64,000 bases of DNA from a virus (taxonomy: Duplodnaviria; Caudoviricetes): positions 2,298 to 66,297 of IMG/VR virus record IMGVR_UViG_3300002741_000002. One strand, given 5' to 3'. This document shows positions 37,283 through 59,952 of the stretch, one piece after another. The notes below the pieces were generated by a model. That model had not been told where the DNA came from and ran no database searches. It saw nothing but the letters and a program-made list of their open reading frames with translations. The translations under genes and the position numbers were made by a program. How positions within the stretch are numbered: the first letter of the stretch is position 1; each line of letters begins with the position of its first letter.

Positions 37283-37298
37283 TTTCGACTAAATTTAT

Positions 37299-37347
37299 CT
37301 GACTGTTAATCAGGGGGTCGTTGGTTCGAGTCCAACTTCGGGCGCCA
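37299..37347 (+). repeat. att site: 3' 49 nt of tRNA-Asn(GTT), not a complete tRNA
   Basis: CTGA-CTGTTAA-TCAG anticodon arm, GGTTCGAGTCC T-arm, CCA end; 5' half replaced by AT-rich DNA. Confidence 0.88.
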
Positions 37348-37390
37348 AATTCCAGTTTCATACCGTCCAACGACGTCCAATGAAACCACC

Positions 37391-37417
37391 AAAACCCGCT
37401 AAAAGGCGGGTTTTTTT
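37391..37417. terminator. Rho-independent, possibly bidirectional terminator
   Basis: AAAACCCGC-TAAAAG-GCGGGTTTTTTT. Confidence 0.7.
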
Positions 37418-37459
37418 GTGCCATACCGTCCAATCTCATCCAGTTGCATCCAGCCTTCG

Positions 37460-37522
37460 GTGTGGGTAAAAGTGTGGGTAAAAGGCGCTTACCCACAGAG
37501 GTGGCGTGTCTTTTACCCACAG
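37460..37522. repeat. Integrase arm-type sites GTGTGGGTAAAA (tandem pair plus inverted TTACCCACAG copies)
   Basis: The same GTGGGTAAAA pair recurs at 51422-51446 at the other end of the element. Confidence 0.7.
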
Positions 37523-38753
37523 CGTGAGGTGCGGCGTGCTGACGGACAAGGCAATCAAGGCGCTTCGACCGAAGGACAAGCCTTACCGAGTAGCCGATGG
37601 CGACAGCCTCTTCATCCTGGTGCAGCCCACGGGGGCGAAGCACTGGGTCTATCGTTTCCGCTTCGCCGGCAAGGAGACCACGCTGTCATTTGGTCTCTAC
37701 GGGGAGATCTCCGCGACGGAAGCTCGCAGACGACATAGAGAGGCGCGGCTTGCTGTCCAGTCGGGGCGTAATCCTGCCGCCGATCGCCAAGCTGCAAAGG
37801 TGCGTTCGCGCTTGGAGGCGGCCAATAGTTTCGAAGCGATAGCCAACGAATGGTTGGAGGGACGTCGGCGCACACTGGCACCCACGACCTTCGAGAAGGC
37901 GGCTCGGAATTTCCGCGTGCTTGTCTACCCATGGTTAGGGAGGTTGCCCATCGCGAGCATCGAACCACCTGACGTGCTGGCCTGTCTGCGGCGTATCGAG
38001 GCCGGTGGTCACCATGAGACCGCGCACCGTATGAAGCAGCGCATCTCCCAGGTGTACCGGTATGCCATCGCTCATGGCTTGGCCCGCGTGAACCCCTCGG
38101 CGGAGCTTAGCGATGCGCTGCACCCCATTGCCTCCAAGAGCAGGGCGGCCATCACCGATCCCGCAGAGGTTGGTGGCCTTCTCCGCGCGATCGAGACGTT
38201 CCATGGGCAGTTCGCTACTGCGTGCGCCTTGAAGCTGGCGCCGCTGGTGTTCGTGCGGCCGGGTGAGCTGCGGAAAGCGGAATGGTCCGAATTCGACCTG
38301 GACGCCGCTCAATGGCGCATCCCTGCCGAGAAGATGAAGATGCGGGAGGAGCACATCGTTCCCCTGTCGACGCAAGCGGTCCATATTCTTCGCGAGTTGC
38401 ATCCGCTAACCGGGGCGGGGCGATACCTCTTCCCTGGCGCCCGCGCGCCAACGCGCCCCATGAGCGAGAACACCATCAATGCGGCCTTGCGCCGGCTGGG
38501 CTACGACGGCGACACCATGTGCGGTCATGGCTTCCGCGCCATGGCGTCCACCAGGCTTAATGAGATGGGTTGGTCGCCAGACGTCATCGAACGCCAGCTC
38601 GCCCATGCGGAGAGGAATAAGATTCGCGCCGCCTACAACCGCGCCCAATATCTGGCTGAGCGCAAAAAGATGATGCAGGCGTGGGCCGATTATCTGGACT
38701 CACTCAGGGCTGGCGGCAATGTGGTCGCGATCCACAAGAAGAAGGCCGGATAA
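37506..38753 (+). CDS. int: P4-like tyrosine integrase
   Basis: LTDKAIKAL...YRVADGDSL...WVYRFRFAGKE arm domain; VRPGELR; HGFRAMAST; QLAH...AYNRAQYL. Confidence 0.95.
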   Translation: MSFTHSVRCGVLTDKAIKALRPKDKPYRVADGDSLFILVQPTGAKHWVYRFRFAGKETTLSFGLYGEISATEARRRHREARLAVQSGRNPAADRQAAKVRSRLEAANSFEAIANEWLEGRRRTLAPTTFEKAARNFRVLVYPWLGRLPIASIEPPDVLACLRRIEAGGHHETAHRMKQRISQVYRYAIAHGLARVNPSAELSDALHPIASKSRAAITDPAEVGGLLRAIETFHGQFATACALKLAPLVFVRPGELRKAEWSEFDLDAAQWRIPAEKMKMREEHIVPLSTQAVHILRELHPLTGAGRYLFPGARAPTRPMSENTINAALRRLGYDGDTMCGHGFRAMASTRLNEMGWSPDVIERQLAHAERNKIRAAYNRAQYLAERKKMMQAWADYLDSLRAGGNVVAIHKKKAG

Positions 38754-38800
38754 GCCACAAAACTCGCATGATCACCTAGATCATGATCACCTAGATTGAT

Positions 38801-39025
38801 TCAGCTCATTGATCTTGTTGCATCGATGTCGTCCTCGATCACCTTTGCTTGGACGTCAGTTTGCAAATCATCAAGGTTAGCCGACATGCCACTAACCACC
38901 CCAACAACATTGCTGGCATCCAAAAGTTGTGCACGCCAAACAAACATCAGCTCGTCCCTGTCGATGTCCATTTGGGCCTCTAATTCGCGGCCCTTGGCAT
39001 CCAGTACTGTAAACAGACGTTTCAT
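38801..39025 (-). CDS. Hypothetical protein
   Basis: MKRLFTVL... 74 aa. Confidence 0.45.
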   Translation of the reverse strand: MKRLFTVLDAKGRELEAQMDIDRDELMFVWRAQLLDASNVVGVVSGMSANLDDLQTDVQAKVIEDDIDATRSMS

Positions 39026-39089
39026 GCGAGAGCCCCTGTTCCTACCAACATGGTGCGCGCGATACTGAATGGCTGCAAGGAGGCTCCCA

Positions 39090-39398
39090 ATGACCGCAGG
39101 CAAGCAATTCAACATTGCCGGTAAGGACTGGCTGACCGTGGATGAGGCCGCCCACTATTGCGGGGTATCGAGTAGCCAATTTCGAAAACATGCAATAGGT
39201 CACGGGCTAATTCCACGCAATTTCATGGGCAAGCAACTGTATGAGAAAGCTGCGCTCTATGCGGCGATTGATGCGTCGGCACCATGGCACATAACGCAGG
39301 GCACCAGACAACCTATTAGTAGAGCAAGTCTATCCCCGAAAATCCGGGCTGCCATGGAAAGACTGGATAAGTATGAGGAGCGCAGAAAGCGACGCTAG
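39090..39398 (+). CDS. Excisionase-like HTH protein
   Basis: AAGGAGG RBS; WLTVDEAAHYCGVSSSQFRK; LYEKAALYAAI. Confidence 0.75.
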   Translation: MTAGKQFNIAGKDWLTVDEAAHYCGVSSSQFRKHAIGHGLIPRNFMGKQLYEKAALYAAIDASAPWHITQGTRQPISRASLSPKIRAAMERLDKYEERRKRR

Positions 39399-39571
39399 CC
39401 TGCTACAAACCTGGGCGGACATGATTGATTCAAGACGCACCGGTAGCAACGTAATTTCAATAGGCCGAAAAAGAGCCTAACGGCACCCGAATGGAGGGTG
39501 AAGGCGCACATACATAAAAGTCGCGCGCCTTCTCTCTGCTCAATCAATTGCGCATCTTTGCAGGCGAAGAT

Positions 39572-40639
39572 CTACTGAGATAGGTCTTTTATGCGCCTGA
39601 TAACCGCATCCTTCAGTTTTTCATCCATGATTCGACCTGTAATGGTAAGGATGACGCTATGTCTTGCAAATAACGCAGCTTGCAATGCTGCTTTGTTGCG
39701 TTGTGACATTAACTCATCTTCTACCGCAGCCTCGATAATCTCGCCCGTATTTTGATCTTTAACCTTGACACGCAACACGAGCGGATCGGATGAATCTACG
39801 CGAATCACGCGAAATTCGCCTTCAATTTCCGTGTCTTCTGACTTGCGACGGCCATTAAGTGAAAGCTCTTTTATTGCCTCTCCCTCAATTCGCACGCCTT
39901 GAATTTGCGTTTCTTTGGCCGAGGAAAAAGAGCGAAGAAGCTCTGCGGTGGCGTCAGCTGCATGAGGCTCAATTGCTCGCAACTTAGGGCTCTTTGTCAA
40001 CGCTTCGGTAAGCAACTTTGTCCGCTCAGTTTCTTGTTGTGACATGCGTTCAATCGATTCCAAGGTTTCCCGGCGGTCTTCCTTGTCAATTTCCTTTAGT
40101 CGAACCGCCTTTCGTTGATTCAGAAACAGTTTGATGACTGCGTGACTTGTATATAAAAGCCCGCATCCAAGAAGGAGTATCAGCAAGTCGTGTGAAGTCA
40201 TGCTACTCGAGACCTTGTCAATAATATGGTTAATGACTTTTTCGAGATCAACTTCATACTGCGCTGACCCATCTCCTACTCTGACGGTCAGTTCGAGATT
40301 CTCTTTCTCTTCCTTTGAAAGGTGGCGTACATCTGCGTCATCGTAGGAAGCTATAGCGTACGACTTGTAAACAGAAGATTGAAGTTCTATATACCCTTTC
40401 ATGACTGAAGGGGTAATGCTTTGATGAAATTGATCGCCTTCAAGATGAGCGTGTAAGTGAGGCCAACCTTTCAGCTTCACTTTGCCATCAAAGTCCCCTT
40501 GGAGCACTTCATTTAAAACCTGGAATGCTTCTTCCTCGTTTGTCACGACCCGGATCATGTCGGCTTGTGGCATACCAATCCATTGCCTCCCTGTTTGCTT
40601 ACCCCTTGCAACCGTACCAGAGGAGAGGACGATTCGCAC
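39572..40639 (-). CDS. AT-rich cargo protein with central TM helix, function unknown
   Basis: 355-aa ORF; LLILLLGCGLLYTSHAVIKLF TM; beta-rich C-terminus. Confidence 0.7.
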   Translation of the reverse strand: MRIVLSSGTVARGKQTGRQWIGMPQADMIRVVTNEEEAFQVLNEVLQGDFDGKVKLKGWPHLHAHLEGDQFHQSITPSVMKGYIELQSSVYKSYAIASYDDADVRHLSKEEKENLELTVRVGDGSAQYEVDLEKVINHIIDKVSSSMTSHDLLILLLGCGLLYTSHAVIKLFLNQRKAVRLKEIDKEDRRETLESIERMSQQETERTKLLTEALTKSPKLRAIEPHAADATAELLRSFSSAKETQIQGVRIEGEAIKELSLNGRRKSEDTEIEGEFRVIRVDSSDPLVLRVKVKDQNTGEIIEAAVEDELMSQRNKAALQAALFARHSVILTITGRIMDEKLKDAVIRRIKDLSQ

Positions 40640-40669
40640 AATTTCATCGCCGAATGCCTATTTCAGCCA

Positions 40670-40698
40670 TTGACAGCTGAGAAAAATTGCCATAAGTT
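40670..40698 (+). promoter_or_regulatory. Sigma70-type promoter
   Basis: TTGACA-17 bp-TAAGTT. Confidence 0.65.
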
Positions 40699-40699
40699 T

Positions 40700-40925
40700 T
40701 GGCCGTCCCCGCCAATTCGGGGACCAGGTTTGGCGACCTGAGAAAACAAAGGCGCAACGGCGCCGATGGCGCTTTTTTTGTGTCCGTTGCGTACGCGTCC
40801 CCCTCCTATGGCGGGCGTGTGGGGCAGCCTTCGGGCTGGCCGGTTTCCTTTGTTACCGGTTCGCCAACCCTGCACGTCCGCCACCCTTGTCGCAACGGCA
40901 TGGGTGGCTCATCAGAGGGGTGAGC
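40700..40925 (+). ncRNA. C4/P4-CI-like antisense RNA region overlapping an ash/icd-like ORF (40699-40923)
   Basis: GGTTTGGCGACC (40727) nearly complementary to GGTTCGCCAACC (40858); CAGCC-TTCG-GGCTG hairpin; ORF motif GAFFVS...GGRVGQPSGWPVS...GSPT. Confidence 0.6.
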
Positions 40926-40926
40926 T

Positions 40927-41256
40927 ATGGCAACCAACGCAAATTCCACGATTAACCAGCAGCCGGCAGATCGGCTGATCCAGCTGGTATGGCAACACTG
41001 GGACGAAGAGGGCGATGACGCCCGGGTCCTCGATCCGGCCACCGGCAAATGGACGTCCGCACGCGATCGCCACCTGGCGAATACCGAACGGGAAATCTTT
41101 GATCTGTTCATCCAGGACGGGCAGAGCAAAGAGTACGCCTCGGCAATGATCGAATTCATGCGCCGGCCGTGCACGCAGGAAGGTGACTGGACCCTTGTAA
41201 AGGGTGGCATGCCGATAACGGAGTACATGGATCAGCTCGCCGGGATGGGGGTATGA
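40927..41256 (+). CDS. Hypothetical protein sharing its C-terminal domain with the next ORF
   Basis: EIFDLFIQDG...AMIEFMRRP...EGD...GG...YMDQL. Confidence 0.7.
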   Translation: MATNANSTINQQPADRLIQLVWQHWDEEGDDARVLDPATGKWTSARDRHLANTEREIFDLFIQDGQSKEYASAMIEFMRRPCTQEGDWTLVKGGMPITEYMDQLAGMGV

Positions 41257-42017
41257 CCGTGAAAGATCAAATTACATCGACCTCCGATGATCTTGATGCT
41301 GAGCGACTTGCCTACCAAATGAAGGCACTCATCCGGGCGAAGTGGCCCGAGCGATACGGCAGAACAAAGCCTGATCTGAGTGTGGTGCATCCCGAATTAC
41401 TGGTAGGCATCAACGATCTACGCAGCGATCCCGGAACGGTTGATAGGGCAAATCAGCTGCTGAAGGGAAATCTGTCTGAAAAATTCAAGAGAGACATCGG
41501 TGTTTACGAATTCGTAAAGCCAGGAGACAAGCCCGATTCGGCCACGATGGAACTAAGCCGCGTGCTACGGGAAATCAATGGCAAATCACGTCGTGACCAG
41601 CTCAACGTACTCCTGGACGAAAAATGGGGTCCTGTCCAAGGTGAAAATCCGCGAAAGCCAATGATCGACAGGATGATGGTTGATCGCCTTAAGGCAATGA
41701 TTCGAACGACATGGCCCGATGAGTTTGGCGCTAGCAAGAAGGTCATCCAATTCCCGCGCGCGAAGAAGCGAGGCGCAAAAAAAAGCAGCGGTCCTCGAGC
41801 GGACGTCGTCCAGTTTCGCTGCGGTCGTGCCGATTTTTCTGTCTCCGATCGAAGGGCATTCGATATATTCGTCAAAGACGGCCGCAGCGCTCGGTTTGCT
41901 GCCGCGATGGTCGACTTTATGCGTAGCCCGTATTCAAAAGAGGGCGACGACTGGTTTGTGAGAGGTGGAGTTTCGATCGCCGATTACATGGACCAACTCA
42001 CGCGCCAGGGGATCTGA
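41253..42017 (+). CDS. Hypothetical protein with internal repeat and the shared C-terminal domain
   Basis: AFDIFVKDG...AMVDFMRSP...EGD...GG...YMDQL; KALIRAKWPERYG / KAMIRTTWPDEFG. Confidence 0.7.
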   Translation: MTVKDQITSTSDDLDAERLAYQMKALIRAKWPERYGRTKPDLSVVHPELLVGINDLRSDPGTVDRANQLLKGNLSEKFKRDIGVYEFVKPGDKPDSATMELSRVLREINGKSRRDQLNVLLDEKWGPVQGENPRKPMIDRMMVDRLKAMIRTTWPDEFGASKKVIQFPRAKKRGAKKSSGPRADVVQFRCGRADFSVSDRRAFDIFVKDGRSARFAAAMVDFMRSPYSKEGDDWFVRGGVSIADYMDQLTRQGI

Positions 42018-42019
42018 TC

Positions 42020-42232
42020 ATGAGTGCCAAGATCATTCCATTCCCCTCGCAGGGTCGCGTTCGGCTTAGACCCGTCGATGATGACGACGAAAACATCCCG
42101 GCTGGTGTGCGCGCGCTGTTGGCCATCATGGAAGCAACGGAGCGCAAGTATGGATCCGCTATGCCGCCGAGCGGCATGAGCCCGGAGGAACATATCCGGG
42201 ACGTTGCGCCCTATCTGCTCCGTCCAGCCTGA
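42020..42232 (+). CDS. Hypothetical protein
   Basis: MSAKIIPFP...; operonic with the upstream pair. Confidence 0.55.
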   Translation: MSAKIIPFPSQGRVRLRPVDDDDENIPAGVRALLAIMEATERKYGSAMPPSGMSPEEHIRDVAPYLLRPA

Positions 42233-42316
42233 TCTGATAGCCTGAAACAGCCGCGCCTAGGCTGATCCCCGAACACCGGGCACCTTCCCCGGCTGGCGCG
42301 GCTTCCTTTTTGAAGG

Positions 42317-43036
42317 GTGCAGAGGTGTGCCGTGATAAACGATTCGATTTACGATGATCCATCAGGGTCAATTGAAGATGATCTCAAGGATGTCGTGAAG
42401 ATTCTTAACGATGAGATCGAGCAGTATTTTAAAATGTTGCTTAAATTCGCCAATGACCTCGGCATCTTAGAAGATCATCTGCTGAAGCACGGAGCATCTC
42501 TTTTTGAATCAAGAATTCTTGAGGTTCAAAAAATGCGTGATCTTTTACATAAAAAAATTCCGTCCGACGAAGAATATGCAAATTTGATTGCCAAAAAGGT
42601 AAGCGACTTCGACATCTTAAAGAAAGGTGCCGGGAGTGCTGGTTTGACATTGCCGCAATCTTCATGGGAAGGCATGTCGATGGCAGTTTTCTTATACAAG
42701 CAAAAGCGCAAGGGTGTTCTTGGGCTATCAGGGATCGCGCACGGTGTCGGGTTGTTTGTAGGAGCCCGCCTTGGATTCGCCAATCCCAAGGCAAAGGCCG
42801 ACATTATTTCCCGATTTGCAAAATCGGGAGCCCAGGCAAAGTTAAAAAAGGACCCTAAGCAAGCGGCAAAATTAGAGGCCAAAAAGCTCTGGGAAGAATG
42901 GCAGGCCGGCAAGACAAAGCATAAAGGTGCGGCTGCATTTGCACGCTTCGTCTGCGGCAAATATCCCATACTCGAAAGCACGGCTGTGGTTGAGAGATGG
43001 GTGAGGCAGTGGGCTGCCTCGAAGCAACAAAAATAG
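42317..43036 (+). CDS. Hypothetical protein upstream of alpA, basic C-terminal HTH-like region
   Basis: AKKLWEEW...AAAFARF...VERWVRQW. Confidence 0.65.
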   Translation: MQRCAVINDSIYDDPSGSIEDDLKDVVKILNDEIEQYFKMLLKFANDLGILEDHLLKHGASLFESRILEVQKMRDLLHKKIPSDEEYANLIAKKVSDFDILKKGAGSAGLTLPQSSWEGMSMAVFLYKQKRKGVLGLSGIAHGVGLFVGARLGFANPKAKADIISRFAKSGAQAKLKKDPKQAAKLEAKKLWEEWQAGKTKHKGAAAFARFVCGKYPILESTAVVERWVRQWAASKQQK

Positions 43037-43169
43037 GCACCCAACTAGCTCAGTACATACCCGGCTAGTCGAATGGGGATCATGCTAGCCGAAGTATTTT
43101 CGCATTCTGTCGCATTTCCTAATCTGTCCTCACTCTTCAGCAATAGACGAACAGCGAGGTTCGATAAAA

Positions 43170-43394
43170 GTGCAGACACTTCCTCAAACTGGTTATCTTC
43201 GCCTCGTCCAGATCATCGGCAGGAAACCTTCAAACGATGATCCTGGTTTGCCGGCAATCATTCCTGTTAGTGCATCGACGTGGTGGGCCGGCGTCCGCTC
43301 CGGACGATTTCCTCAACCGGTAAAACTCGGCCCCCGCATTACCGCCTGGAAGGTTGAGCACATCCGCGCCCTCATCGAGAGGGATGCGGCATGA
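43170..43394 (+). CDS. alpA: AlpA-family regulator/RDF
   Basis: YLRLVQIIG...IIPVSASTWWAGVRSGRFPQPVKLGPRITAWKVEHI. Confidence 0.92.
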   Translation: MQTLPQTGYLRLVQIIGRKPSNDDPGLPAIIPVSASTWWAGVRSGRFPQPVKLGPRITAWKVEHIRALIERDAA

Positions 43395-43609
43395 ACGGCG
43401 ATCTCGATCCCTCCCGCCGGCTGTATGCCGAGCCCGATGTAAGCGAGCTCCTGAGCGGCATCCCGGCGCTGGCTGCTCAGCTCTACACCTCCCTCAACGC
43501 GCTACAGAACGATCCCAGTCCTTCCAGCTGTGAATCACTGGTCTTGACTCTTTACGGTGCGCAGACGCACGTACAACGGCTAAGGACGGCTGTCGAGCGG
43601 AGCGTCTGA
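43391..43609 (+). CDS. Hypothetical protein
   Basis: Overlaps the alpA stop (ATGA). Confidence 0.55.
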   Translation: MNGDLDPSRRLYAEPDVSELLSGIPALAAQLYTSLNALQNDPSPSSCESLVLTLYGAQTHVQRLRTAVERSV

Positions 43610-43613
43610 CGCG

Positions 43614-44135
43614 ATGGCCACCATCTCCGAACGCAAACGCCCACGGATTAAGGGGAGATCGGGCGCCTCATTTCTCCAGCTCCCGCACTTCGTCATCAAT
43701 ACGCCGCAGTGGGCAGCGCTCACCGGCAACGAAGTGAAGATGCTGATTGAGATCGCCAGCCAGTACAACGGTTCGAACAACGGCGACTTGTCGTATCCGC
43801 GGAGCAAGTACCCGGTACGTGGCTGGTCGGGAATTGACGTCGCGCACCGCGCGCTGACTTCGTTGAAAGAAAAAGGATGGATCTTGCTGACCAGGCAGGG
43901 CGGTCGGCAGGGCTGCAGTCTGTACGCCGTGACGTTCTTTCCGATGGATGAGAGCAGTAAACATCCGTGCCACCGAGAGCACAAGCCGAGTCATCTGTGG
44001 AAGCACGCGCAAGCACGCGTCATTGACGCGTCCAACGACGCAAACGCTGTTCCGGAATCCGGACACAAACTGTTCCGAAATCCGGACAGTAAAACTTTTA
44101 GTGTCCGAAATCCGGACAGAAAGATTGTCCGGTGA
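43614..44135 (+). CDS. wHTH replication-initiator-like protein
   Basis: FLQLPHFV...LIEIASQYNGSNNGDLS...LKEKGWI; iterons in its 3' end. Confidence 0.65.
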   Translation: MATISERKRPRIKGRSGASFLQLPHFVINTPQWAALTGNEVKMLIEIASQYNGSNNGDLSYPRSKYPVRGWSGIDVAHRALTSLKEKGWILLTRQGGRQGCSLYAVTFFPMDESSKHPCHREHKPSHLWKHAQARVIDASNDANAVPESGHKLFRNPDSKTFSVRNPDRKIVR

Positions 44136-44183
44136 CGTGCACGTATGTACGAGACATGTCCCTTTTACTGTCCGGAATCCGGA
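44051..44183. repeat. Four TCCG(G/A)AATCCGGA iterons: candidate satellite origin
   Basis: Copies start at 44051, 44074, 44104, 44171. Confidence 0.75.
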
Positions 44184-44336
44184 ACCCTTTATAGATATAT
44201 ACCAGAGGGGTTTCTGTTTTCTGCTTCTGCTCCGCTTGGCTTATCGCACTGGAGCGCCCTCGTTGGTCGACCAAGGGACATCCAAGCGGCTTGCATGGAT
44301 CGCGCACCTGTCGACGCCATCAATTCGGAACCAACC

Positions 44337-44678
44337 ATGGAAACGAAGAAGATCAGCTCCCTCGAAGCCTGGGAGCGTCAGAAGGCATTGCTAGCAAAGC
44401 GCAAGCAGAAGAAAAACCCATCGGGTTATTCGCGCGGCATAAAACTCAAGAAAAACGAGGGTGCGTGCGTGGTTTGCATGCAGAGCCCGGGAAGCCCTGT
44501 GCAAGGACAGCACGACCTAGGCAGTGCTCAGGCACAGCCTGGACCATGCGACCGCAATGCGACCGCATGCAATGCACCTGTGACGTACCTGATACGCGTA
44601 CGGGTGAGTACCGAGCCACGGCGACTGCCCGGCGGATGTTTGCTGTACCGATTTCCCGTGCAACTGCGATCCGTATAG
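44337..44678 (+). CDS. Hypothetical Cys-containing protein
   Basis: METKKISS...CVVC... Confidence 0.4.
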   Translation: METKKISSLEAWERQKALLAKRKQKKNPSGYSRGIKLKKNEGACVVCMQSPGSPVQGQHDLGSAQAQPGPCDRNATACNAPVTYLIRVRVSTEPRRLPGGCLLYRFPVQLRSV

Positions 44679-44687
44679 GGGGCATCC

Positions 44688-45356
44688 ATGTCGAACGCCG
44701 GGCCGGGCGTGCGACTCAGGACAACGCGGTTAGCTGACTGGAACGCACCGGCTTACCGCATCCATGCCCTTGAGTTGCCGAGATCACCACGCGCCACAAC
44801 TTGTGATGATCTGAAATACCGCAATCGAAAAACCACGGTGGATCACCGTGGACGAAGGTTGACTTATGGCAGCTTGTGGGCGGAGGCCGCGGCGCTGTCT
44901 TACATGGCGGCCAGTCCGCATGATGTCCGCCCGCATCTCTTGCTTGCGTATTTTGGGCAGATACGCGCAAGCACGGAGGCGGCAATCACTTATGGCCACC
45001 GCTATCTGGAAGTCTGGTGCGCTCGCGTCGGAATCGGTCAGAAATGGACACCTGTCTTTCCATTTGCCGCAGCGGACGCCCTGGCGGTTTTGTATTGGGG
45101 GCGCGCCACGCGTATCGGCATGCGGGTTTCTATCACGACCCGAGCACGCCAATTCAACATCGCACCTCGCGACTACTCGCTTCTTCGAGAGAAAGCTCTC
45201 GAGGCGTATCGACTCCGACTGACCGAGGCAATCGTGCAATTCGAACGCGCGCTGACGCGAATGGAAATATACGCACCCGCAAATCTGCATACTCAAAGTA
45301 GGAACACTGGATTGCCGGCCTGCGGTTCGGAATTCCTCGCGCGCCGTGCCGCGTAA
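44688..45356 (+). CDS. Hypothetical protein, possibly a Q-like antiterminator/late regulator
   Basis: Size and position before the late-like genes; weak resemblance only. Confidence 0.4.
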   Translation: MSNAGPGVRLRTTRLADWNAPAYRIHALELPRSPRATTCDDLKYRNRKTTVDHRGRRLTYGSLWAEAAALSYMAASPHDVRPHLLLAYFGQIRASTEAAITYGHRYLEVWCARVGIGQKWTPVFPFAAADALAVLYWGRATRIGMRVSITTRARQFNIAPRDYSLLREKALEAYRLRLTEAIVQFERALTRMEIYAPANLHTQSRNTGLPACGSEFLARRAA

Positions 45357-45495
45357 TGCACGGCGGCCATATTCCAGTGTGACGCGGTGTGATGTCACCG
45401 TGCGTCACCCCGCGTCACACATAACGCAATCACTTAAACCCTATAGGGAACGGTATCGAAACCGTTTCGGAAACGTTTCACAAAGGAGAGCCGAG

Positions 45496-45909
45496 ATGAA
45501 CAAATTGCACCATAACCTGGAGTCATTCACGCCCAGAGTGAACGCCAGCGGCGTGACGAATCACGACGCACTACCTCACGCCTACAAAGATCAGCTGCCC
45601 GATGCGAAGGCGTATTACGCACATCACCTGGGCGACGACCTTACGCCGTCCGCAACCGGGTGGGCGTTGGCTGGATGTCCCTTTTGCCCGGACGGGGAAA
45701 ATCACTCCGTATCGGTCAACCTCCTTGACGGAAGGTGGCGCTGCTACGCGACATCGCGCGACATCGTGAGAGACATGGTGCATTTCCACATGCTCACTTA
45801 CGGGCTGGGTCTCCGAGAAGCGGTAAGCGACCTGCTGGAGGCATGGGCTCGCAAGCCCGGGTTCGCTCCCGTCAAGCGGTTCAATGGTTTCGCGATGGCG
45901 GGCCATTAA
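45496..45909 (+). CDS. Stand-alone CHC2-type zinc-finger (primase N-terminal-like) protein
   Basis: AAGGAG RBS; GCPFCPDGENHSVSVNLLDGRWRCY...DMVHFHM...LREAV. Confidence 0.65.
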   Translation: MNKLHHNLESFTPRVNASGVTNHDALPHAYKDQLPDAKAYYAHHLGDDLTPSATGWALAGCPFCPDGENHSVSVNLLDGRWRCYATSRDIVRDMVHFHMLTYGLGLREAVSDLLEAWARKPGFAPVKRFNGFAMAGH

Positions 45910-45924
45910 TTCAGGAGACTCATC

Positions 45925-46323
45925 ATGCCCGTACACAAATCGGAAAATCTGCTCGATGGCAGCGGCAACCTTGCCACGCGGCTGGCGAAGTTGAAAGAGA
46001 TCCAACGTCTTGGACTTGCCGACAAGAAATTGGATGTCATGGCGATCGCCAGGGATCCGAACGTATTTAACTTGATGGAAGGAAAGATGCTCGCATCGGC
46101 ACGCGATGCCGCGCGCGACAGTGGGCTTTTGTTCCCGCATACGACTCGCGACGACACGGGACGGAAGATCACGCGATACGAGGGCGACGCCAAAGCTACA
46201 TGGGAACCATTCATGGCCCCTGGCATGATTGGCCGACTCAATAGAAATTGCGGCACGCACGAGGAAACCGTGCGGGTCCGCGACAACGAGCGCGTCATGG
46301 TGGTTAAAAAGAATTCGCCTTAA
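45925..46323 (+). CDS. Hypothetical protein resembling the C-terminus of DUF2213 head-scaffold proteins
   Basis: DDTGRKITRYEGDAKATWEPF motif (family recalled from memory). Confidence 0.45.
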   Translation: MPVHKSENLLDGSGNLATRLAKLKEIQRLGLADKKLDVMAIARDPNVFNLMEGKMLASARDAARDSGLLFPHTTRDDTGRKITRYEGDAKATWEPFMAPGMIGRLNRNCGTHEETVRVRDNERVMVVKKNSP

Positions 46324-46506
46324 GGTTTTGGCGCCTTCCTCAGTTTCCACGTAGCCGTTCTCCCTGCGGGAGGAGGGCGCCACTTTTCTATTTTCACGCG
46401 GCCTCGATTTGGACGCCGTGTTTCCCCTTGCCGATCTCGGCTTAACCCATGCCTCATCTTCTTGAGATGAGGCACGACACCCTATTGCCCAACGAAAGGA
46501 AATTTC

Positions 46507-47640
46507 ATGAATGCAAAGATAGTTCGATCACTTCTTGCTATGTGCATGCTGATGCCAGTGTTGGTATGGGCACAGCAGTATCCCACTCCCACCTTCAACA
46601 GCCTGACGTTGCAGAATCCATTGACTGTGGCAAATGGTGGAACTGGCGCCACGGCGTCCACTGGTAGCGGCTCCGTGGTGCTAGCCACCTCTCCATCATT
46701 GGTAACCCCTGCACTTGGCACTCCGTCTTCCGCCGTGCTGACGAATGCAACCGGACTCCCTCTTTCAACGGGTATTACGGGCACTCTTCCAGTCGGAAAT
46801 GGCGGAACGGGTTCCACGACGAGCACGGGGTCCGGTTCTGTTGTGTTGTCAAATTCCCCTACGCTTGTTACTCCAGCGTTGGGAACGCCCGCATCCGTAA
46901 CACTCACCAATGCAACAGGCCTTCCGCTCACTACAGGCGTAACCGGAACGCTCCCTGCGGCAAATGGCGGCACAGGCGTTACGACAAGCACCGGTTCGGG
47001 TTCGGTGGTGTTATCGACTTCCCCCACATTGACGACGCCGAATCTCGGCACGCCTTCTGCGGTAACGTTGACTAATGCCACTGGACTGCCTATTTCAGGC
47101 ATTTCCGGCCTGGGTAGTTCCGTGGGGCAGGCTTTGGCATGGCCCATTACAGGTGTCGTCACATCCAGTGCAGCGCTTGTGGGTGCTGTCAATGCGACCA
47201 TTACCACTCCCACGATTTTGACGCCAACGATTCAAGGCATTACTAGCGGCTCCAATGCAGGGGCTGGAAATGTTGGCGAATTTATTTCTGCAACCGCCAG
47301 CTCCTTTTCACTAACGACCTCTACGCCAGCCAATGCCACCTCTATTTCTCTCACGGCAGGCGATTGGGATGTATCGGGCGGGTTCACCATTACGAACACA
47401 ACCAGCAATATGAACAACGGGGTCTGTGGCTGGAGCACAACGTCTGCCACGTTCGGCCCCATGGGAACCTATGCACAAATAGGCGGCTCATCATTGGCGC
47501 TTAGCACGCTTTCAAATGGCATACCTGGCGCACGGTTGAATGTCACGAGCACCACCACGGTTTACATGGTGTGCGAAGCCATCTTCAGCGGTGGCCTTAC
47601 GAGCATGAGCGGCATCATCCAAGCACGGAGGATGCGCTAA
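46507..47640 (+). CDS. Signal-peptide-bearing tail-fibre-like protein with three 55-aa GGTG repeats
   Basis: [26 protein letters not shown]; repeats start near 46621, 46786, 46951. Confidence 0.7.
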
Positions 47641-48572
47641 TGCTGAACTTCATCTATGCCGATAACGTCAATACGACGCTGGCCTCTCCACTTTCCAGTT
47701 CTGCCACGTCACTTACTCTGGCGAGTTCTGCCAATTTGCCCACATCCATTCCAGCGGGAATGGCGCTCGTGATCACTTTGAATGATCAGGCGACCCGGCA
47801 GAACTTCGAGATCATCTATGCCACATCGATCAGCGGCGCAACGCTGAGTGGCTTGCAGCGCGGACAAGAAAACACATCTGCACAAAATTGGCTTGTCGGC
47901 GACTTTGCTTGGAATGGCATCACGGCAGGACAGATGCGAGGGCTTTCTTCGGGACGACTGCTTAGCGGGCCTACTGTGCTCACTGCTGCGTCAGGTACTT
48001 TTACACCCAATCCAGCCGCAACTTTGACCTATGTCAAAGGATGCAGTGGCGGTGGCGCCGGCGGTGGTGCGGTCGCCACTGGCAGCGGCCAAGTATGTAT
48101 CGGTAGCGGAGGCAATGCTGGCGCCTATTGCGAATTCTTCATAGCCGGCCCAATCAGCGGCACGGTGTCCTATACCTGCGGGCAGGGCGGCACCGGTGTA
48201 GTTGGTGCCACAGGCAATGCTGGCGGCAATTCGACCTTCGGCACTTATGCAACATGCCCCGGTGGACTTGGTGGTCTTGTATCACCGGCAGCAGCGCCGC
48301 CGTTCTTCGAAACAGGCAATTCGAATGGAAGTGCTCCATCTCTGTCAGGAGCCGCTCCCGTCTTGTTATTGCCTTCGCCATCAGGAACGGCGGGCCTAGC
48401 CTTTTCCCCGACATCCGTAAGTGGCGGTCGAGGAAACAACAATCCTCTTGGTGTAGCGCCCGGCATAGGTTACGGAACGGGAGGCAATGGTGCGGCGAGC
48501 TTTCCATCCAGTCCTGCGCAAGCCGGAACGAACGGTGAGCCTGGCGCATGGATCGTCTACGAATACGCATAA
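47640..48572 (+). CDS. Gly-rich tail-fibre-like protein
   Basis: FIYADNVNTTLAS...EIIYATSISG...RGQENT N-terminus; GGGGAGG, GGNAGAY, GYGTGGNG, GAWIVYEYA. Confidence 0.65.
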   Translation: MLNFIYADNVNTTLASPLSSSATSLTLASSANLPTSIPAGMALVITLNDQATRQNFEIIYATSISGATLSGLQRGQENTSAQNWLVGDFAWNGITAGQMRGLSSGRLLSGPTVLTAASGTFTPNPAATLTYVKGCSGGGAGGGAVATGSGQVCIGSGGNAGAYCEFFIAGPISGTVSYTCGQGGTGVVGATGNAGGNSTFGTYATCPGGLGGLVSPAAAPPFFETGNSNGSAPSLSGAAPVLLLPSPSGTAGLAFSPTSVSGGRGNNNPLGVAPGIGYGTGGNGAASFPSSPAQAGTNGEPGAWIVYEYA

Positions 48573-48668
48573 GAGTCATTCATGGGATCTGCGGTCTGGC
48601 GCTCACTCGAAAGTAGGCGCCAGACGTCCATGCGACATCTTCAATTTTGTGATGGGAGGGGTACAGGC

Positions 48669-48860
48669 ATGAACGGCAAAGCCACCGCTATCGACATCCA
48701 GAAGCTTGCCGCCAGTTATTGCGGCGACGCACTGGCAGGACTCCTCTCGATTGCGCGGGATGAAAAGGCACCCATGGCGGCACGAAGGGACGCCGCGAAA
48801 ACCTACGCGAAATATGTGTGTCCTGTCCCAGACGACATCAGCAAATTACTGGAGAAATAG
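48669..48860 (+). CDS. Small helical protein, TerS-oligomerisation-like
   Basis: ALAGLLSIARDEKAPMAARRDAAKT. Confidence 0.4.
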   Translation: MNGKATAIDIQKLAASYCGDALAGLLSIARDEKAPMAARRDAAKTYAKYVCPVPDDISKLLEK

Positions 48861-48862
48861 TG

Positions 48863-49177
48863 ATGACCGACAACTCGAAGCGGAAGCCTCCGGCGGCAGG
48901 CAAAGGCCGGCCTAAGGGCGCCAAGAACAAACTGCCGCGGTCACTCAAGGAAACGATCCTAGCCTCGCTGGATGACGTGGGTGGACGCGCTTATTTGGCT
49001 CAGCAGGCCCGTGACAATCCGAACGCTTATTTGTCGCTATTGGCCAAGGTGCTCCCGTCCGATATCCAGGTCTCCGGCTACGAAGGCGGGCCGATCGGCT
49101 ACGCCGTCATCCCGGAGCAGGCAAAGAGCATGGAGGAATGGGTGCGCTCAGTGGCATCGCAGCAGAGGGCGAACTGA
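48863..49177 (+). CDS. Small terminase-like protein
   Basis: GKGRPKGAKNK...LKETIL...YL...NPNAYLSLLAKVLP. Confidence 0.6.
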   Translation: MTDNSKRKPPAAGKGRPKGAKNKLPRSLKETILASLDDVGGRAYLAQQARDNPNAYLSLLAKVLPSDIQVSGYEGGPIGYAVIPEQAKSMEEWVRSVASQQRAN

Positions 49178-49178
49178 C

Positions 49179-49364
49179 ATGGCCGAATCATACAAATTGC
49201 CCGAGGACGCAGACCTACAAGTGATAGTCGCTCTGTTCCGCGCGAAGCTGCCAGCCCGCGGTAGGAAACGGCTTGAGATGCTGTCGCTCCGTGACCAGTA
49301 CCGCAATATCCTCGAAGTTATGGTCGAGCTCAAGCGGCTCGGTCTTATCGATCTGAAACGATGA
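49179..49364 (+). CDS. Hypothetical protein
   Basis: 61-aa operonic ORF. Confidence 0.45.
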   Translation: MAESYKLPEDADLQVIVALFRAKLPARGRKRLEMLSLRDQYRNILEVMVELKRLGLIDLKR

Positions 49365-49789
49365 ATTTGCAAAACAACCCCATGCAGTGTGGCGCCAAGA
49401 CCCGGAGAGGGACTCCATGCCCTACGCCCGCCATGCCGAATGGCCGCTGCCGCATGCATGGGGGCACTTCGCCGGGGGCACCCGTGGGCAATGACAACGC
49501 AGTTAAACACGGCATCTACCGTGCACGGCTTACCGAGGAAGAGCAGGCGACATATGACCAGCTTGAACCAGGCGGGGTGGATGAAGAGCTTCGCCTTACC
49601 CGTACCAGGCTCGCCCGTGCCCTGAGGGCTGAACAGGAGGGGCGCGATCCAGGGCGGGACTACGACGCCATTGTGGATCGCCTGCTCGGGCGCATCGAAA
49701 GGCTTGAACTGACCCGCCGAAGGTTGCTCGACGCGAGCATAGATAACGACGAGGTCATCCTGATTGATCCCAATCCGGACATCCCCTGA
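49361..49789 (+). CDS. HGGxSTG-domain protein (TerS-associated zinc knuckle)
   Basis: CGAKTRRGTPC...NGRCRMHGGTSPGAPVGNDNAVKHGIY. Confidence 0.8.
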   Translation: MNLQNNPMQCGAKTRRGTPCPTPAMPNGRCRMHGGTSPGAPVGNDNAVKHGIYRARLTEEEQATYDQLEPGGVDEELRLTRTRLARALRAEQEGRDPGRDYDAIVDRLLGRIERLELTRRRLLDASIDNDEVILIDPNPDIP

Positions 49790-50140
49790 ATTTTGCACCC
49801 AGTACGCGCGCGCGAATGACTTTGGCTGATGACTAGGGAGCCGCCGGCCATCATGACATGAGGGGTGAAGCCCGGACTCCCCCGTTGCGCCGGGTGGCAG
49901 CAGAGATCCTGGCTTCCATGCCGGTGATCGGATCCGGCGGCTCCGGCTGCAGAGATACGGGCTTGCCCGGAAAGCCGATGTGAAGGACCGGCATGGCTGC
50001 GATGGGTAGGAGCCGGCGTGGCCATGACTTCTCTATCTGCAAAACCATCCCGTGCAATCAGGTGTCAAGAAGCAAACCACCCATGTGATGGCGCAGTTTG
50101 CTTGGAGTACCTGACAGACTAGAGCTGCTTCCGCCTCTCT

Positions 50141-50611
50141 TCACTTTGTCCAGCGATAGCCACGTTTAAAAACTACACGCTGGGCATAAAGCTTCGTTAG
50201 CAATACAGAGCCAAACACGAGCATGCCAAAAAACAGCCACCATCCGGCTGGATGGCCCACCTGATAGGAGATAAAGGCAGAAACAAGCACTAGCACGCCG
50301 AACGCTGCGGATGGAGGGCCGTACTCAACCTCTGCTTGGCATCCCGTACACACTCGCGCACCTCGTGGCACTTCGGTATGGCAATGAGGGCAAGCATTGC
50401 TGCTCGATGGAAGAGAATTTGAATCTCTTAAGATCCCCCATTTGTTGCTCAGGTCCTGGGCAACTGGTGTCGCGTCATGTGCTTCAAATTGACTATCGGG
50501 AACGCGTGCCAGTTGCGTGACATTTCCAGCAATGGGTCGACCACATTTCAAGCAAGCTGGTGCTTGATCGCTTACTTGGATGCCGCAATCGGGGCAATTG
50601 ATCAAAGCCAT
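50141..50611 (-). CDS. Zinc-ribbon membrane protein
   Basis: CPDCG...CLKCG; CPHC...CTGC; two C-terminal TMs. Confidence 0.75.
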   Translation of the reverse strand: MALINCPDCGIQVSDQAPACLKCGRPIAGNVTQLARVPDSQFEAHDATPVAQDLSNKWGILRDSNSLPSSSNACPHCHTEVPRGARVCTGCQAEVEYGPPSAAFGVLVLVSAFISYQVGHPAGWWLFFGMLVFGSVLLTKLYAQRVVFKRGYRWTK

Positions 50612-50637
50612 GTTTCCCTCCGGGCTAGTTGATTGAG

Positions 50638-50946
50638 CTATTTAAGCCACCGCGACACGCCACCATGATGCGAGCAGGTGCCGCGGTGATGTTGGCTGAA
50701 GCTGTAACTACCGTCGTGACACTGTGCAGACGCCCCAGGCGGAACGGCTCCGGATACGGTATGGGCAGGGCTATGCACCACCACGCCATAGCGATTGACG
50801 TAGGTCCCCTGCTCTATGAGCTGAGTTGAGCTATCTGTGGCGCCTCGTGCGCGCTGCTGCGTTGTAGCAGGCTGTACATCCTGGGCTACAACTGCGGTGT
50901 TGAATCCAAGCGCCAGCACCAAAAACAAGCAAACCCGTGTTTGCAT
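50638..50946 (-). CDS. Exported DUF3761-like protein
   Basis: Signal peptide; ASAQCHDGSYSFSQHHRGTCSHHGGV. Confidence 0.75.
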   Translation of the reverse strand: MQTRVCLFLVLALGFNTAVVAQDVQPATTQQRARGATDSSTQLIEQGTYVNRYGVVVHSPAHTVSGAVPPGASAQCHDGSYSFSQHHRGTCSHHGGVSRWLK

Positions 50947-51045
50947 GTCGCCCCCCTGAATGTTCCCCTTTCACAAATCTATGCAAGAGACTGGCTGTCG
51001 AGCGTAGCCGCAGCGATCCCGATGCTAGATCACCAAACCGGCCCT

Positions 51046-51339
51046 CTAGTGCCCGTTCGGATCTTTAGTGCCAACCTTCCCCGTATACGGATTGACATTC
51101 CCCTTGGTAGAGAAATTGTTCAGTCTTGTGCTGTCCGGCGCTGAGTGCATATAGGAGTGGACATATGTGCCGTCCCGACGCGTGTATCCACTGGTGCGGC
51201 TGTCGCTTGCACGCGGAGAAATGTACGTGTGTGTAGATGAGGGGCTGTGGCTTCCGTGATGCGATCCGCGGGCTATCACATTCCCGCACGTACCTAGAGC
51301 TACCACGCCCAAAGCAAACAACGCTATTGCGATCTTCAT
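51046..51339 (-). CDS. Exported small conserved protein
   Basis: Signal peptide; GYTRRDGTYV...NNFSTKGNVNPYTGKVGT. Confidence 0.7.
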   Translation of the reverse strand: MKIAIALFALGVVALGTCGNVIARGSHHGSHSPSSTHTYISPRASDSRTSGYTRRDGTYVHSYMHSAPDSTRLNNFSTKGNVNPYTGKVGTKDPNGH

Positions 51340-51498
51340 GGTTCGTCCCCCTGACCACCAAAGTTCAGCGAAGGATATACCCCCTTAAGCTTCAGATCTC
51401 GCGCCGCCCAGCTAGCACAGGGTGTGGGTAAAAAAGTGGGTAAAAATTCAAGTCAAAAAGTCGAACACGTTTAAGATCAATAAGATAAATTGACTATG

Positions 51499-51518
51499 CG
51501 AGTCCAACTTCGGCGCCA
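51499..51518 (+). repeat. att site: short tRNA-Asn 3' copy with a 1-nt deletion
   Basis: CGAGTCCAACTTCGGCGCCA vs CGAGTCCAACTTCGGGCGCCA at 37327-37347; IHF consensus TATCAAGGGCTTG at 51523-51535. Confidence 0.85.
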
Positions 51519-51586
51519 GATATATCAAGGGCTTGCGGCTTCCGCAGGCCCTTGTTCTTTGGGCGTGTATAAAAACACGTATAAAA

Positions 51587-52771
51587 TTAGTCGGTATCAG
51601 GTACTTCTCCGGCAGGCTCGACGAGGGGCACTTCATGGTCGTAACGATGGACCATGCGTCGCTCTATGTGACCACTAGCCTGCTGCTTTTTGTCAGGAGT
51701 GCCTGCTGTATCAGTGATCCCGCGATGCTTTAGGCCATGTAGGCCGAAGCGCTCTGCATCAGTGATGAGTTTGGCCTCCATCGCGATTTCAATGCCGCGT
51801 GCCCATGCGCTCTTGAGCGCTTCCTTCGAAACACGTGCGCCATCTTCGGCGACGATCAACGGCCGGTCTTTTGCACGAAGCGGCACTGGTCGCCGCCTCT
51901 TTGCCCATATCGCGTTTCGTCTCTGCACAAGAAAATCCCATGCCTCCTGTAGGGCTGGAATCCAGCGCGTGACGTTGTCACGGCTTCCTTTAACGCGATC
52001 GACGTATATACCTTCCGGCAACGCATCAGCATCCGAAAGCTTACGTACTTCAACATTACGCATGCGACAGCGATAAGCAATTTCCGCCACTGCCCACAAG
52101 TAGGGCGACAGTGACCCCTTACGTCGACTGGGAAGGTTTCCACGGCGGCGCCAAAGCGCGATGACTGCGCGCATAGTAATTCGCTCTGGCATGCGAGGGT
52201 CGGCGCGCTCGACAGCAGCCTCGACCCCCAATGCTGGATTCTCGCTGCTATAGCCGCGATTGATACCCCACTCGAACGTGCGAGACAGGTAGCGCAGAAC
52301 GTGATTTGCTTTGGCCGGTGTCGGTTTTGGATAACTACCGTCACCTGCGCGTTCGCCTCTTGCCAGTTCGTCAATAAGTTTTTGCACTATGGGCCGGTTG
52401 ATACGCTTGCGATTGAGCTTTGCAAAGGGAACACCCAGCTTCGTCTGGAATTTTTGAAGTACGCCCCGGCAATATCGATAATCATCCTGAGTTGCTTTCG
52501 TCAGATTTCTGAACTTGTCGGATTGCTCAAATTGCTCAAGCATGTAGTCAAGCATTTGTTCATCCAGTCCCGACAGCTCATCAGCGATGCGGAACAAGTC
52601 AGATAGAAGCGCTGTCTTGTCGGCAACTTTTTTGCTCCGCGGCTTCCCATCAACGTAAATGGTGTACCAAAAATGGCGTTGACGGTGCCAATAGATTCCG
52701 TTGGGAATCTTCGCCTGATCGATATGTTGTGGGATGGTGGCGTCGTATTTGCGCTTCCTGCCGCGAGTCAT
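51587..52771 (-). CDS. int: Tyrosine integrase
   Basis: MTRGRKRK...; CRMRNVE, HGLKH, SGH...Y catalytic residues. Confidence 0.88.
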   Translation of the reverse strand: MTRGRKRKYDATIPQHIDQAKIPNGIYWHRQRHFWYTIYVDGKPRSKKVADKTALLSDLFRIADELSGLDEQMLDYMLEQFEQSDKFRNLTKATQDDYRYCRGVLQKFQTKLGVPFAKLNRKRINRPIVQKLIDELARGERAGDGSYPKPTPAKANHVLRYLSRTFEWGINRGYSSENPALGVEAAVERADPRMPERITMRAVIALWRRRGNLPSRRKGSLSPYLWAVAEIAYRCRMRNVEVRKLSDADALPEGIYVDRVKGSRDNVTRWIPALQEAWDFLVQRRNAIWAKRRRPVPLRAKDRPLIVAEDGARVSKEALKSAWARGIEIAMEAKLITDAERFGLHGLKHRGITDTAGTPDKKQQASGHIERRMVHRYDHEVPLVEPAGEVPDTD

Positions 52772-52980: not shown

Positions 52981-53016
52981 GAGGCCTTGTTCTCCCTGTT
53001 TTGCTTTATTAGTTTT

Positions 53017-56024: not shown

Positions 56025-56102
56025 CAGGCAAGCCGGGTCCGTACCGGCTGCGCAGGTAGCCGGTGAAAAAGAAGGGAAGGGGTTTAGGGCGAGGCGGTTA
56101 GA

Positions 56103-56498: not shown

Positions 56499-56512
56499 GG
56501 GAACCCCTGTAG

Positions 56513-56848: not shown

Positions 56849-56874
56849 TTAGTCCTCATACACCGCTTCTACGC

Positions 56875-59932: not shown

Positions 59933-59952
59933 CTTCTAGGACTTGGTTTAGC

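Follow-up and report, generated by a model that had tools for sequence, protein, structure and literature searches.

The DNA considered here is a 64,000-nucleotide stretch of a tailed-phage record (hereafter the window), comprising bases 2298-66297 of the 66.3-kb IMG/VR entry IMGVR_UViG_3300002741_000002. Between two P2-like prophages the window holds a discrete 14.2-kb unit (37327-51518), referred to below as the island, which joins an integrase, an RNA switch, regulators and a replication module to a rightward operon with scaffold-like, fibre-like and small terminase (TerS) genes. The attachment (att) core repeat and the arm-type repeats fix its ends, in near-exact agreement with the limits drawn in a preliminary description of this DNA, which had taken the island for a phage satellite. 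Its features are the following (aa, amino acids; E, expectation value; HTH, helix-turn-helix; ORF, open reading frame).

37287-37345, plus strand: 3′ fragment of a tRNA(GTT, Asn-like), Rfam tRNA score 26 bits, below the gathering score
37327-37346, plus strand: attL core repeat, with an exact 15-nt repeat at 51499-51513
37462-37520: arm-type repeats GTGGGTAAAA beside the integrase gene (two in direct orientation, one inverted)
37506-38753, plus strand: tyrosine integrase with Arm-DNA-bind_3, three Pfam domains in all
39069-39398, plus strand: small HTH protein, weak excisionase candidate (HTH_17, E 0.003; phrog_66, E 0.001)
39572-40639, minus strand: cargo slot 1, a 355-aa protein (phrog_6191, E 7.5e-90)
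40692-40888, plus strand: C4-type RNA switch with a1/b1 targets, isrK-like leader and C4 antisense RNA
40927-42017, plus strand: two paralogous genes (109 aa and 254 aa) downstream of C4
42250-42316, plus strand: int-alpA RNA motif, 60 bits
43170-43394, plus strand: AlpA-like regulator (PF05930, 20.3 bits against a cut-off of 21)
43614-44135, plus strand: Rep-like small DNA-binding protein, 173 aa
44688-45356, plus strand: 222-aa Q-antiterminator-like protein, a core gene of the family
45496-45909, plus strand: degenerate CHC2-type zinc-finger protein, in an ORF open from 45346
45925-46323, plus strand: 132-aa scaffold-like protein, a stand-alone homologue of the C-terminus of a NUDIX/DUF2213 protein
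46388-48650, plus strand: exchangeable tail-tip cassette, with a hairpin ahead of it (46356-46379)
46507-47640, plus strand: fibre 1, with a Sec-like N-terminus, three GGTG repeats of ~55 aa and a C-terminal domain (phrog_11393)
47640-48572, plus strand: fibre 2, with an N-terminal baseplate-proximal domain and a Gly-rich C-terminal part (phrog_6427, phrog_863)
48582-49364, plus strand: three small conserved genes before TerS, encoding 92 aa, 104 aa (48863-49177) and 61 aa (49179-49364)
49361-49789, plus strand: TerS, with an HGGxSTG domain (phrog_1889)
50141-51339, minus strand: cargo slot 2, with a double zinc-ribbon protein, a DUF3761 protein and a 97-aa exported-looking protein
51424-51518, plus strand: two far-side copies of the arm repeat and the attR core (51499-51518)

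The core repeat is an exact 15-nt direct repeat, CGAGTCCAACTTCGG, at 37327 and 51499, and corresponds to the 3′ end of the tRNA(GTT)-like sequence; the 23-nt attL pattern, with up to three mismatches allowed, occurs solely at the attL core. The decamer GTGGGTAAAA has five copies in 64 kb where 0.11 would be expected, and all of them fall within 37462-37520 and 51424-51445. A core repeat with arm-type sites on both sides is the layout of an attP site, and the island is therefore a discrete element. In the tRNA fragment, which forms the junction with the left P2-like prophage, the anticodon arm, T arm and CCA end are readable; ARAGORN found no complete tRNA in the window or in the whole contig.

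Sister islands were found by a scan of JGI metagenome contigs and are located inside very long host contigs. One of them, L143, measures ~14.1 kb, directly follows a tmRNA gene and has a like architecture of core and arm repeats; another, L142, follows a tRNA-Thr gene (its far end was not found). All three islands have a common order of integrase, minus-strand cargo, C4 module, int-alpA RNA, alpA, replication module and 222-aa gene. Beyond the 222-aa gene, L143 has the finger gene, the 132-aa gene, the three small genes and TerS, and its DNA is 78-81% identical to that of the window over 44686-46387 and 48651-49783. Every backbone gene shows a bias of mismatches between window and L143 toward third codon positions (in the 222-aa gene, 83 at third positions versus 19 and 22 at the others), which indicates purifying selection. 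With L145 and L146, which are more distantly related, the island has just the integrase, one replication-module gene and the Q-like gene in common. Close relatives of island proteins also occur on Logan/ENA contigs of 8.9, 12.9, 16.5, 26.3, 27.1, and 194 kb.

Judged from their sequences, these sister islands, with a shared backbone and varying cargo, have the look of a living element family. This pattern argues against the outcome that the preliminary description had set against its own proposal, namely that the island is a deletion remnant of a full prophage. Its phage modules are represented by pieces only, the CHC2 finger is degenerate, and a relic of 26 aa resembling the integrase C-terminus lies at 39400-39477, as one might expect of a decayed and immobile prophage. 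However, the att and arm sites are both intact, a sister island of the same size occupies another site, the backbone genes are under purifying selection, the stand-alone 132-aa protein has a diverse family, and the order of fibres followed by TerS is unobtainable by one deletion of the map of the donor lineage. We thus regard decay from a prophage as quite unlikely, and the earlier preference for a satellite stands.

The match of the 132-aa protein is to the final ~110 residues of a phage head protease-scaffold protein of 615-622 aa, which has NUDIX and DUF2213 domains and is encoded between the portal and major capsid protein (MCP) genes in the IMG/VR proviruses G001 and G002 and in GenBank OK094664.1. 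The scaffold-like label given earlier to this gene is upheld by this match. An exhaustive HMMER search gathered 43 clusters of the family, ~30 of them stand-alone (118-214 aa); the few long members match at their extreme C-terminus, and one of these has DUF2213 above the Pfam cut-off. The gene is 84% identical in L143, with strong codon-position bias. Its AlphaFold2 model is confident (predicted local distance difference test, pLDDT, 87.7), and a Foldseek search with it against the Protein Data Bank (PDB) gave no meaningful match. There was also no Pfam or PHROG match to a capsid-morphogenesis family, in a search that did not extend to marker profiles of phage-inducible chromosomal islands (PICIs). 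By analogy, this mimic of a scaffold tail would be the functional counterpart of the capsid-morphogenesis gene of PICIs. The N-terminal NUDIX hydrolase fused to DUF2213 in G002 (L137:3882-5750) and in OK094664.1 (30983-32830) is itself an unusual combination for a head-assembly protein.

Where the preliminary description counted three TerS-like genes, only 49361-49789 is demonstrably TerS; the others resolve into three small conserved genes. Their frames were set by codon-position bias against L143, in which the 92-, 104- and 61-aa proteins are 71%, 89%, and 61% identical, and an ORF at 48972-49364 proved to be a wrong-frame call. The 104-aa protein is grouped with viral proteins by an Atlas search, with a weak lead to DUF5681. 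TerS itself is 84% identical in L143, and its homologues lie directly upstream of genes for the large terminase (TerL; Terminase_6N/6C) and a DUF4055 portal. Its C-terminal tail ends in DP[ND][PS]D, as do those of the TerS proteins of G001, G002 and OK094664.1; among 182 window ORFs and 4,692 ORFs in the fetched loci, only the TerS proteins of the islands and of the G001/G002/QDWS lineage end in this way. The TerS proteins of G001 and G002 are only 27% identical, versus 80% for their TerL proteins, and the tail is kept in both. In terminases in general, the tail of TerS docks on TerL, and the tail of the island protein presumably docks on the TerL of a helper in the same manner. TerS of the island type was absent from the helper-lineage records searched. 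In L143, three tandem 16-nt units (14203-14262) lie in the 5′ part of TerS and extend the N-terminus of the protein; they could reflect repeat slippage or a feature of the packaging site.

Downstream of the scaffold mimic, DNA homology with L143 ends at 46387; it restarts at 48651, ahead of the packaging genes, giving the cassette clean boundaries. Residues 91-377 of fibre 1 are 40% identical to a G001 gene, and at its N-terminus it shares 55-67% identity with the genes located after the fibre gene in G002 and L133. Fibre 2 (start corrected from 47571 to 47640) is 65-72% identical over residues 1-102 to the post-baseplate fibre gene of G001-G005, and an N-terminal stretch is 68% identical to vBSbQDWS_25; in the helper lineage, this fibre gene follows a baseplate wedge gene (phrog_6) and a phrog_8212 gene. 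L143 has, instead of the fibre pair, two genes for a baseplate hub and a spike, which are 45-62% identical over their full length to the hub and adjacent baseplate/spike genes of the lineage of OK094664.1. The cassette is thus discrete, and hub and spike take the place of fibres in L143; to this extent the earlier proposal of a fibre swap that changes host range is supported, and retargeting as such is plausible. We put forward tentatively, at somewhat under even odds, that the cassette is an exchangeable set of tail-tip parts taken from one temperate helper lineage, yielding particles with host-recognition or penetration parts chosen by the satellite. In L142, a relative without the packaging genes, a lytic tail protein stands at the corresponding position.

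The cassette could, however, be used for interference rather than for retargeting. The N-terminus of fibre 1 resembles a signal peptide, as it does in its phage homologues, which points to export of the Sec type, and the phage homologues with a like N-terminus adjoin an O-acyltransferase gene, a position typical of lysogenic conversion; fibre 1 may be an exported conversion or exclusion factor instead of a virion part. A satellite carrying such cargo might poison the tail assembly of its helper or of a competitor with the fibre, hub and spike copies, or mask or modify a surface receptor with the exported fibre 1. PICIs have a defence hotspot downstream of their replication genes that includes tail-assembly inhibition (PMC11364771), and Rta of the Vibrio element PLE11 blocks helper tails. 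Against this, fibre 2 and the L143 hub and spike genes are complete in length and share 45-72% identity with structural genes, the cassette sits inside the late operon, flanked by scaffold mimic and packaging genes, and PADLOC matched no defence family among ten other island proteins, the 355-aa protein included (the cassette proteins were outside that scan). An interference or exclusion function for the cassette is in our view possible, though doubtful. Provirus G002 has two further fibre/spike-like genes (L132:8868-9737 and L132:9789-11807) whose products carry Sec-type N-termini followed by QSYPSP(T/I)FN; they lie between a tail fibre gene and the acyltransferase gene, and each may be a virion part or an exported conversion factor.

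Four independent parts of the island family agree on one lineage of phages, namely the 132-aa protein, the fibre pair, the hub and spike of L143 and the tail of TerS. Because of this shared signature, the most probable helper, as far as homology can tell, belongs to the lineage of G001, G002 and OK094664.1, which are temperate phages of ~44-48 kb. A search for the phages with the closest fibre and TerS homologues, a check recommended in the preliminary description, led to G001-G005 for the fibres, to G001, G002 and OK094664.1 for the TerS tail and to other phages for the TerS body. More distant relatives of this lineage infect Klebsiella, Yersinia, and Pantoea. The records OK094664.1 and OP650936.1 have equal length (47,902 bp) and the same MCP match (both 97.7% MCP identity to G002), with the host deposited as Shewanella baltica for one and as a ‘Tenericutes’ isolate for the other; at least one of the two attributions looks doubtful.

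The same evidence bears on a satellite of the P4 type that would exploit the flanking P2-like prophages. The island adjoins two such prophages and has an RNA of the C4/CI type, an AlpA-like gene and an integrase of the P4 type, all of which would suit such an element. Yet it shows no protein or DNA similarity to these neighbours and has no cos-like DNA in common with them, Sid, Psu, Delta and the alpha primase-helicase gave no family match among the island ORFs tested, and the structural homologies indicate another lineage. A P4-type dependence on the neighbours is very unlikely, and the earlier suggestion that the helper is a different phage gains from the scaffold, fibre and TerS-tail matches to the lineage of OK094664.1.

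As stated in the preliminary description, genes for capsid, portal, TerL, Sid, Psu or Delta/Ogr were not found among the island ORFs tested (Pfam, PHROG and NCBIfam). The Pfam and PHROG scans also detected no head-tail connector genes, which belong with capsid, portal and TerL to the set of the capsid-forming PICIs (cf-PICIs); an alpha primase-helicase was not found inside the island, and a megablast search of the whole island against GenBank phages gave no match. With most genes lacking an assigned function, the island might be taken for an integrative element that is no satellite and that carries phage-derived cargo. We consider this highly improbable: a single operon holds TerS, the scaffold mimic and the tail parts, all facing the same way, L143 keeps that arrangement, and the scanned ORFs showed no gene for conjugation or mobilisation.

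The 222-aa gene, which opens the late operon, is 82-91% identical in L143 and L142. The protein is rare, with nine relatives among 5.8 billion protein clusters; protein and alignment queries found none in GTDB species genomes, and an alignment query found none in IMG/VR. Its AlphaFold model has an overall pLDDT of 58.7, with mostly 70-90 in a core at residues 63-194. The most specific Foldseek matches of this model were the Pseudomonas AlpA antiterminator and Q-lambda, and a second structural comparison gave Z scores of 11.0 for Q-lambda (122 residues, 3.1 Å) and 7.6 for AlpA, with 6.3 for the best unrelated protein. A search of 48,161 chains that was independent of Foldseek placed AlpA and Q-lambda as the top two with Z 6.6, level with unrelated helical proteins. 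The model makes a Q-type antiterminator probable at slightly better than even odds, a reading that agrees with the placement of the gene as first in the late operon, with the CGTCAC repeats downstream and with the hairpin before the cassette. The earlier, queried Q label therefore keeps the resemblance of fold to Q-lambda and AlpA in its favour; the evidence is one of fold, with a Z score tied with those of unrelated chains. The stretch that follows the gene (45357-45495) has three CGTCAC repeats and a GAAACG/CGTTTC hairpin, partly kept in L143. In L142 (10691-15984) and in L144, the Q-like gene is followed by genes for a 260-aa protein (75% identity in L144), a 664-aa protein and a 741-aa protein, the 664-aa protein of L142 being an SLT ‘lytic tail protein’; finger, scaffold-mimic and TerS genes were not found in this variant. 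The finger gene of the island most likely starts at 45496, according to its ribosome-binding site and alignment, and is 56% identical in L143, with codon-position bias.

In the left half of the island, the integrase is 54-62% identical to those of L143 and L142. Just before the cargo of slot 1, a stretch of 26 aa with 50% identity to the C-terminus of the island integrase (E 1.7e-4) could be left over from a former integrase gene or from a recombination event. Slot 1 is occupied by other minus-strand genes in the sister islands. Within the C4-type switch, the terminator of the isrK-like leader lies at 40759-40773 and the C4 antisense RNA at 40804-40888 (83 bits, Rfam); C4, isrK, a1/b1 and int-alpA RNAs are all kept in L142 and L143 at equal relative positions. 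The 109-aa and 254-aa paralogues have a common C-terminal domain (E 1e-17) and homologues in L142 and L143. Pfam and PHROG scans found no family for these genes after C4, which sit in the position of antirepressors and may, by that position, act as such. The AlpA-like gene is ~37% identical to the same-position genes of L142 and L143, with the int-alpA RNA upstream.

The Rep-like protein has 51 homologues, two of the 51 with a winged-helix MarR_2 domain, and its gene, with three 19-nt iterons (44051-44122) within its 3′ end, is 48% identical in L145; the protein is a putative replication initiator. Replication modules differ within the family, with Rep and iterons in the window island and a DUF3631 protein in L142 and L143. 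Pattern scans of IMG/VR gave no relative of the Rep-like, 355-aa and 132-aa proteins, and PDB sequence searches with Rep, TerS and the 222-aa profile were empty. Most calls of the preliminary description for this half have been borne out, namely the integrase with its three Pfam domains, the C4 RNA with its targets and leader, alpA just below the Pfam cut-off and Rep with its iterons; the excisionase call keeps only a weak HTH_17 match. Farther right, the CHC2 finger is confirmed in degenerate form by a match to the primase N-terminus phrog_47 (E 3.9e-5) and the two fibre-like genes by their PHROG matches.

Taken together, we interpret the island, with a probability of roughly 0.7, as an integrative satellite on the PICI plan that would hijack the packaging (by TerS), the capsid assembly (by a CpmB-like mimic) and probably the tail tips of its helper. 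In such a satellite, the C4 antisense RNA would silence the two genes in antirepressor position and the rightward operon. Helper activity would lead to excision through the integrase and the arm-flanked att core, and replication would proceed from the iterons in the Rep-like gene, with the 222-aa protein permitting read-through of the late operon. The 132-aa protein would mimic the capsid-binding C-terminus of the helper protease-scaffold and compete on the coat protein, as CpmB of SaPI1 does; TerS, with a DNA-recognition part of its own and a helper-like tail, would lead the helper TerL to package island DNA; and the cassette would provide tail-tip parts (fibres here, hub and spike in L143) for incorporation into helper tails.

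Several points weigh against this interpretation. Excision, replication, packaging and transfer are inferred throughout. The contig has no helper prophage of the lineage of OK094664.1, none of the accessible phages accounts for all modules at once, and identity in the scaffold domain is just 34-39%. The motif at the end of TerS has few residues and drew notice only after the fact, and the body of the protein is nearest to other phages (48%) rather than to that lineage. For the Q-like call, the model has an overall pLDDT of 58.7 and the Z scores fall within the noise for helical proteins. A Sec-type N-terminus fits poorly with a virion part assembled in the cytoplasm, the finger, 132-aa and TerS genes are missing from L142, and no primase or helicase domain or pri-rep gene was recognisable in the island in the Pfam and PHROG scans.

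Among described systems, the Gram-negative PICIs of the EcCICFT073 type (PMC10085698) come close in size, in the order of integrase, putative AlpA-type regulator, replication, candidate morphogenesis hijacker, TerS and accessory genes, and in having accessory slots after the integrase and after terS. In contrast to them, the island combines a C4 RNA switch with a Q-like gene, shows no pri-rep gene that can be recognised, would use a scaffold-tail mimic as its morphogenesis gene and carries tail-part genes, which are ‘forbidden’ in the PICI model (PMC10085698). By that definition tail and holin genes are absent (PMC10085698); the island has the integrase and the small terminase and, in its fibres, departs from the rule of tail-gene absence. 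Compared with cf-PICIs, the left-hand module type (integrase, putative AlpA-type regulator) and TerS are alike and the strategy is reversed, with tail-tip genes instead of capsid, portal and TerL. With P4 the island has in common an RNA of the C4/CI family, a putative AlpA-type regulator, the integrase type, a tRNA-linked site and P2-like neighbours, and differs from it in having its own TerS, no matches to sid, psu, delta or alpha, and no cos-like DNA shared with those neighbours.

In SaPI1 with its helper 80alpha, CpmB and the helper scaffold have a common C-terminal motif and the same mode of binding to the coat protein, and a TerS of the satellite redirects the helper TerL (PMC5644958). 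The island parallels both devices, a small protein with the capsid-binding C-terminus of the helper scaffold and a TerS of its own, without sequence relation and in a different phylum, and its mimic copies ~110 residues of a protease-scaffold fusion; for the island, both the scaffold and the TerS activity are predicted. The Vibrio cholerae PLE satellites, presented in 2026 as the first family to build chimeric tails, contribute their own tape measure, chaperone and hub, and unrelated satellites were remarked to carry tape-measure genes too (PMC12987554). Satellite-encoded substitutes for helper tail parts would be common to both, and the hub of L143 parallels BhuB of PLE. However, backbone and helper are unrelated, the helper of the island would be temperate, the cassette varies between members of the island family, and fibres, which form the cassette in the window, are not among the PLE tail parts reported (PMC12987554). 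In the literature searched, whose coverage was limited, no account came up of a satellite that has fibres of its own or an exchangeable tail-tip cassette. The earlier statement that the island is unlike any described satellite family holds for the combination of genes itself and not for its overall layout, which is that of PICIs, nor for tail parts, for which PLE is a precedent. On the evidence of its genes, the island is best described as a new variant, a member of a PICI-like satellite family.

The window has high-GC blocks of ~65-69% and lower blocks of ~50-58%. The P2-like prophages noted earlier on both flanks are confirmed. On the left, the gpD tail protein gene (7458-8519, phrog_52) belongs to a prophage whose terminase region is 76-81% identical to those of P2-like phages of Ralstonia and Burkholderia, and on the right a second prophage extends from 51519 onward, with the following genes.

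51587-52900: integrase of the right P2-like prophage
53017-55731: Toprim/DUF5906 replication protein of the right P2-like prophage, outside the island
63145-63990: gpD of the right P2-like prophage

The gpD genes of the two prophages are 79% identical, and the three elements form a tandem array at a single tRNA site, with the island in the middle. The two related prophages (7458-37300 and 51519-64000) share one orientation; the right-hand one has its integrase and replication genes on the side of the tRNA fragment, and the tRNA-proximal end of the left-hand one falls outside the contig. A 1761-aa ORF at 100-5385 lies to the left of the P2-like tail genes, in a block of lower GC, and occupies the position where the other prophage has a radical-SAM peptide cassette.

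If the cassette does supply tail-tip parts to satellite particles, these islands would be the first PICI-type elements that build chimeric tails, and the first satellites to do so with their own receptor-binding fibres. The chimeric-tail strategy, so far a trait of Vibrio PLEs of a lytic phage, would then reach temperate phages of other Proteobacteria and extend to receptor-binding fibres. Lack of tail genes is part of the usual definition of a satellite, and current finders, which reject carriers of such genes, would overlook a PICI-type family of this kind. Two protein-protein interfaces of hijacking are directly testable, one offered by the family of stand-alone scaffold tails and the other by the TerS tail held in common with the phage lineage. 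Moreover, if the fibres are used, the satellite, and not its helper, would set its own range of recipients, and models of gene flow by satellites would change.

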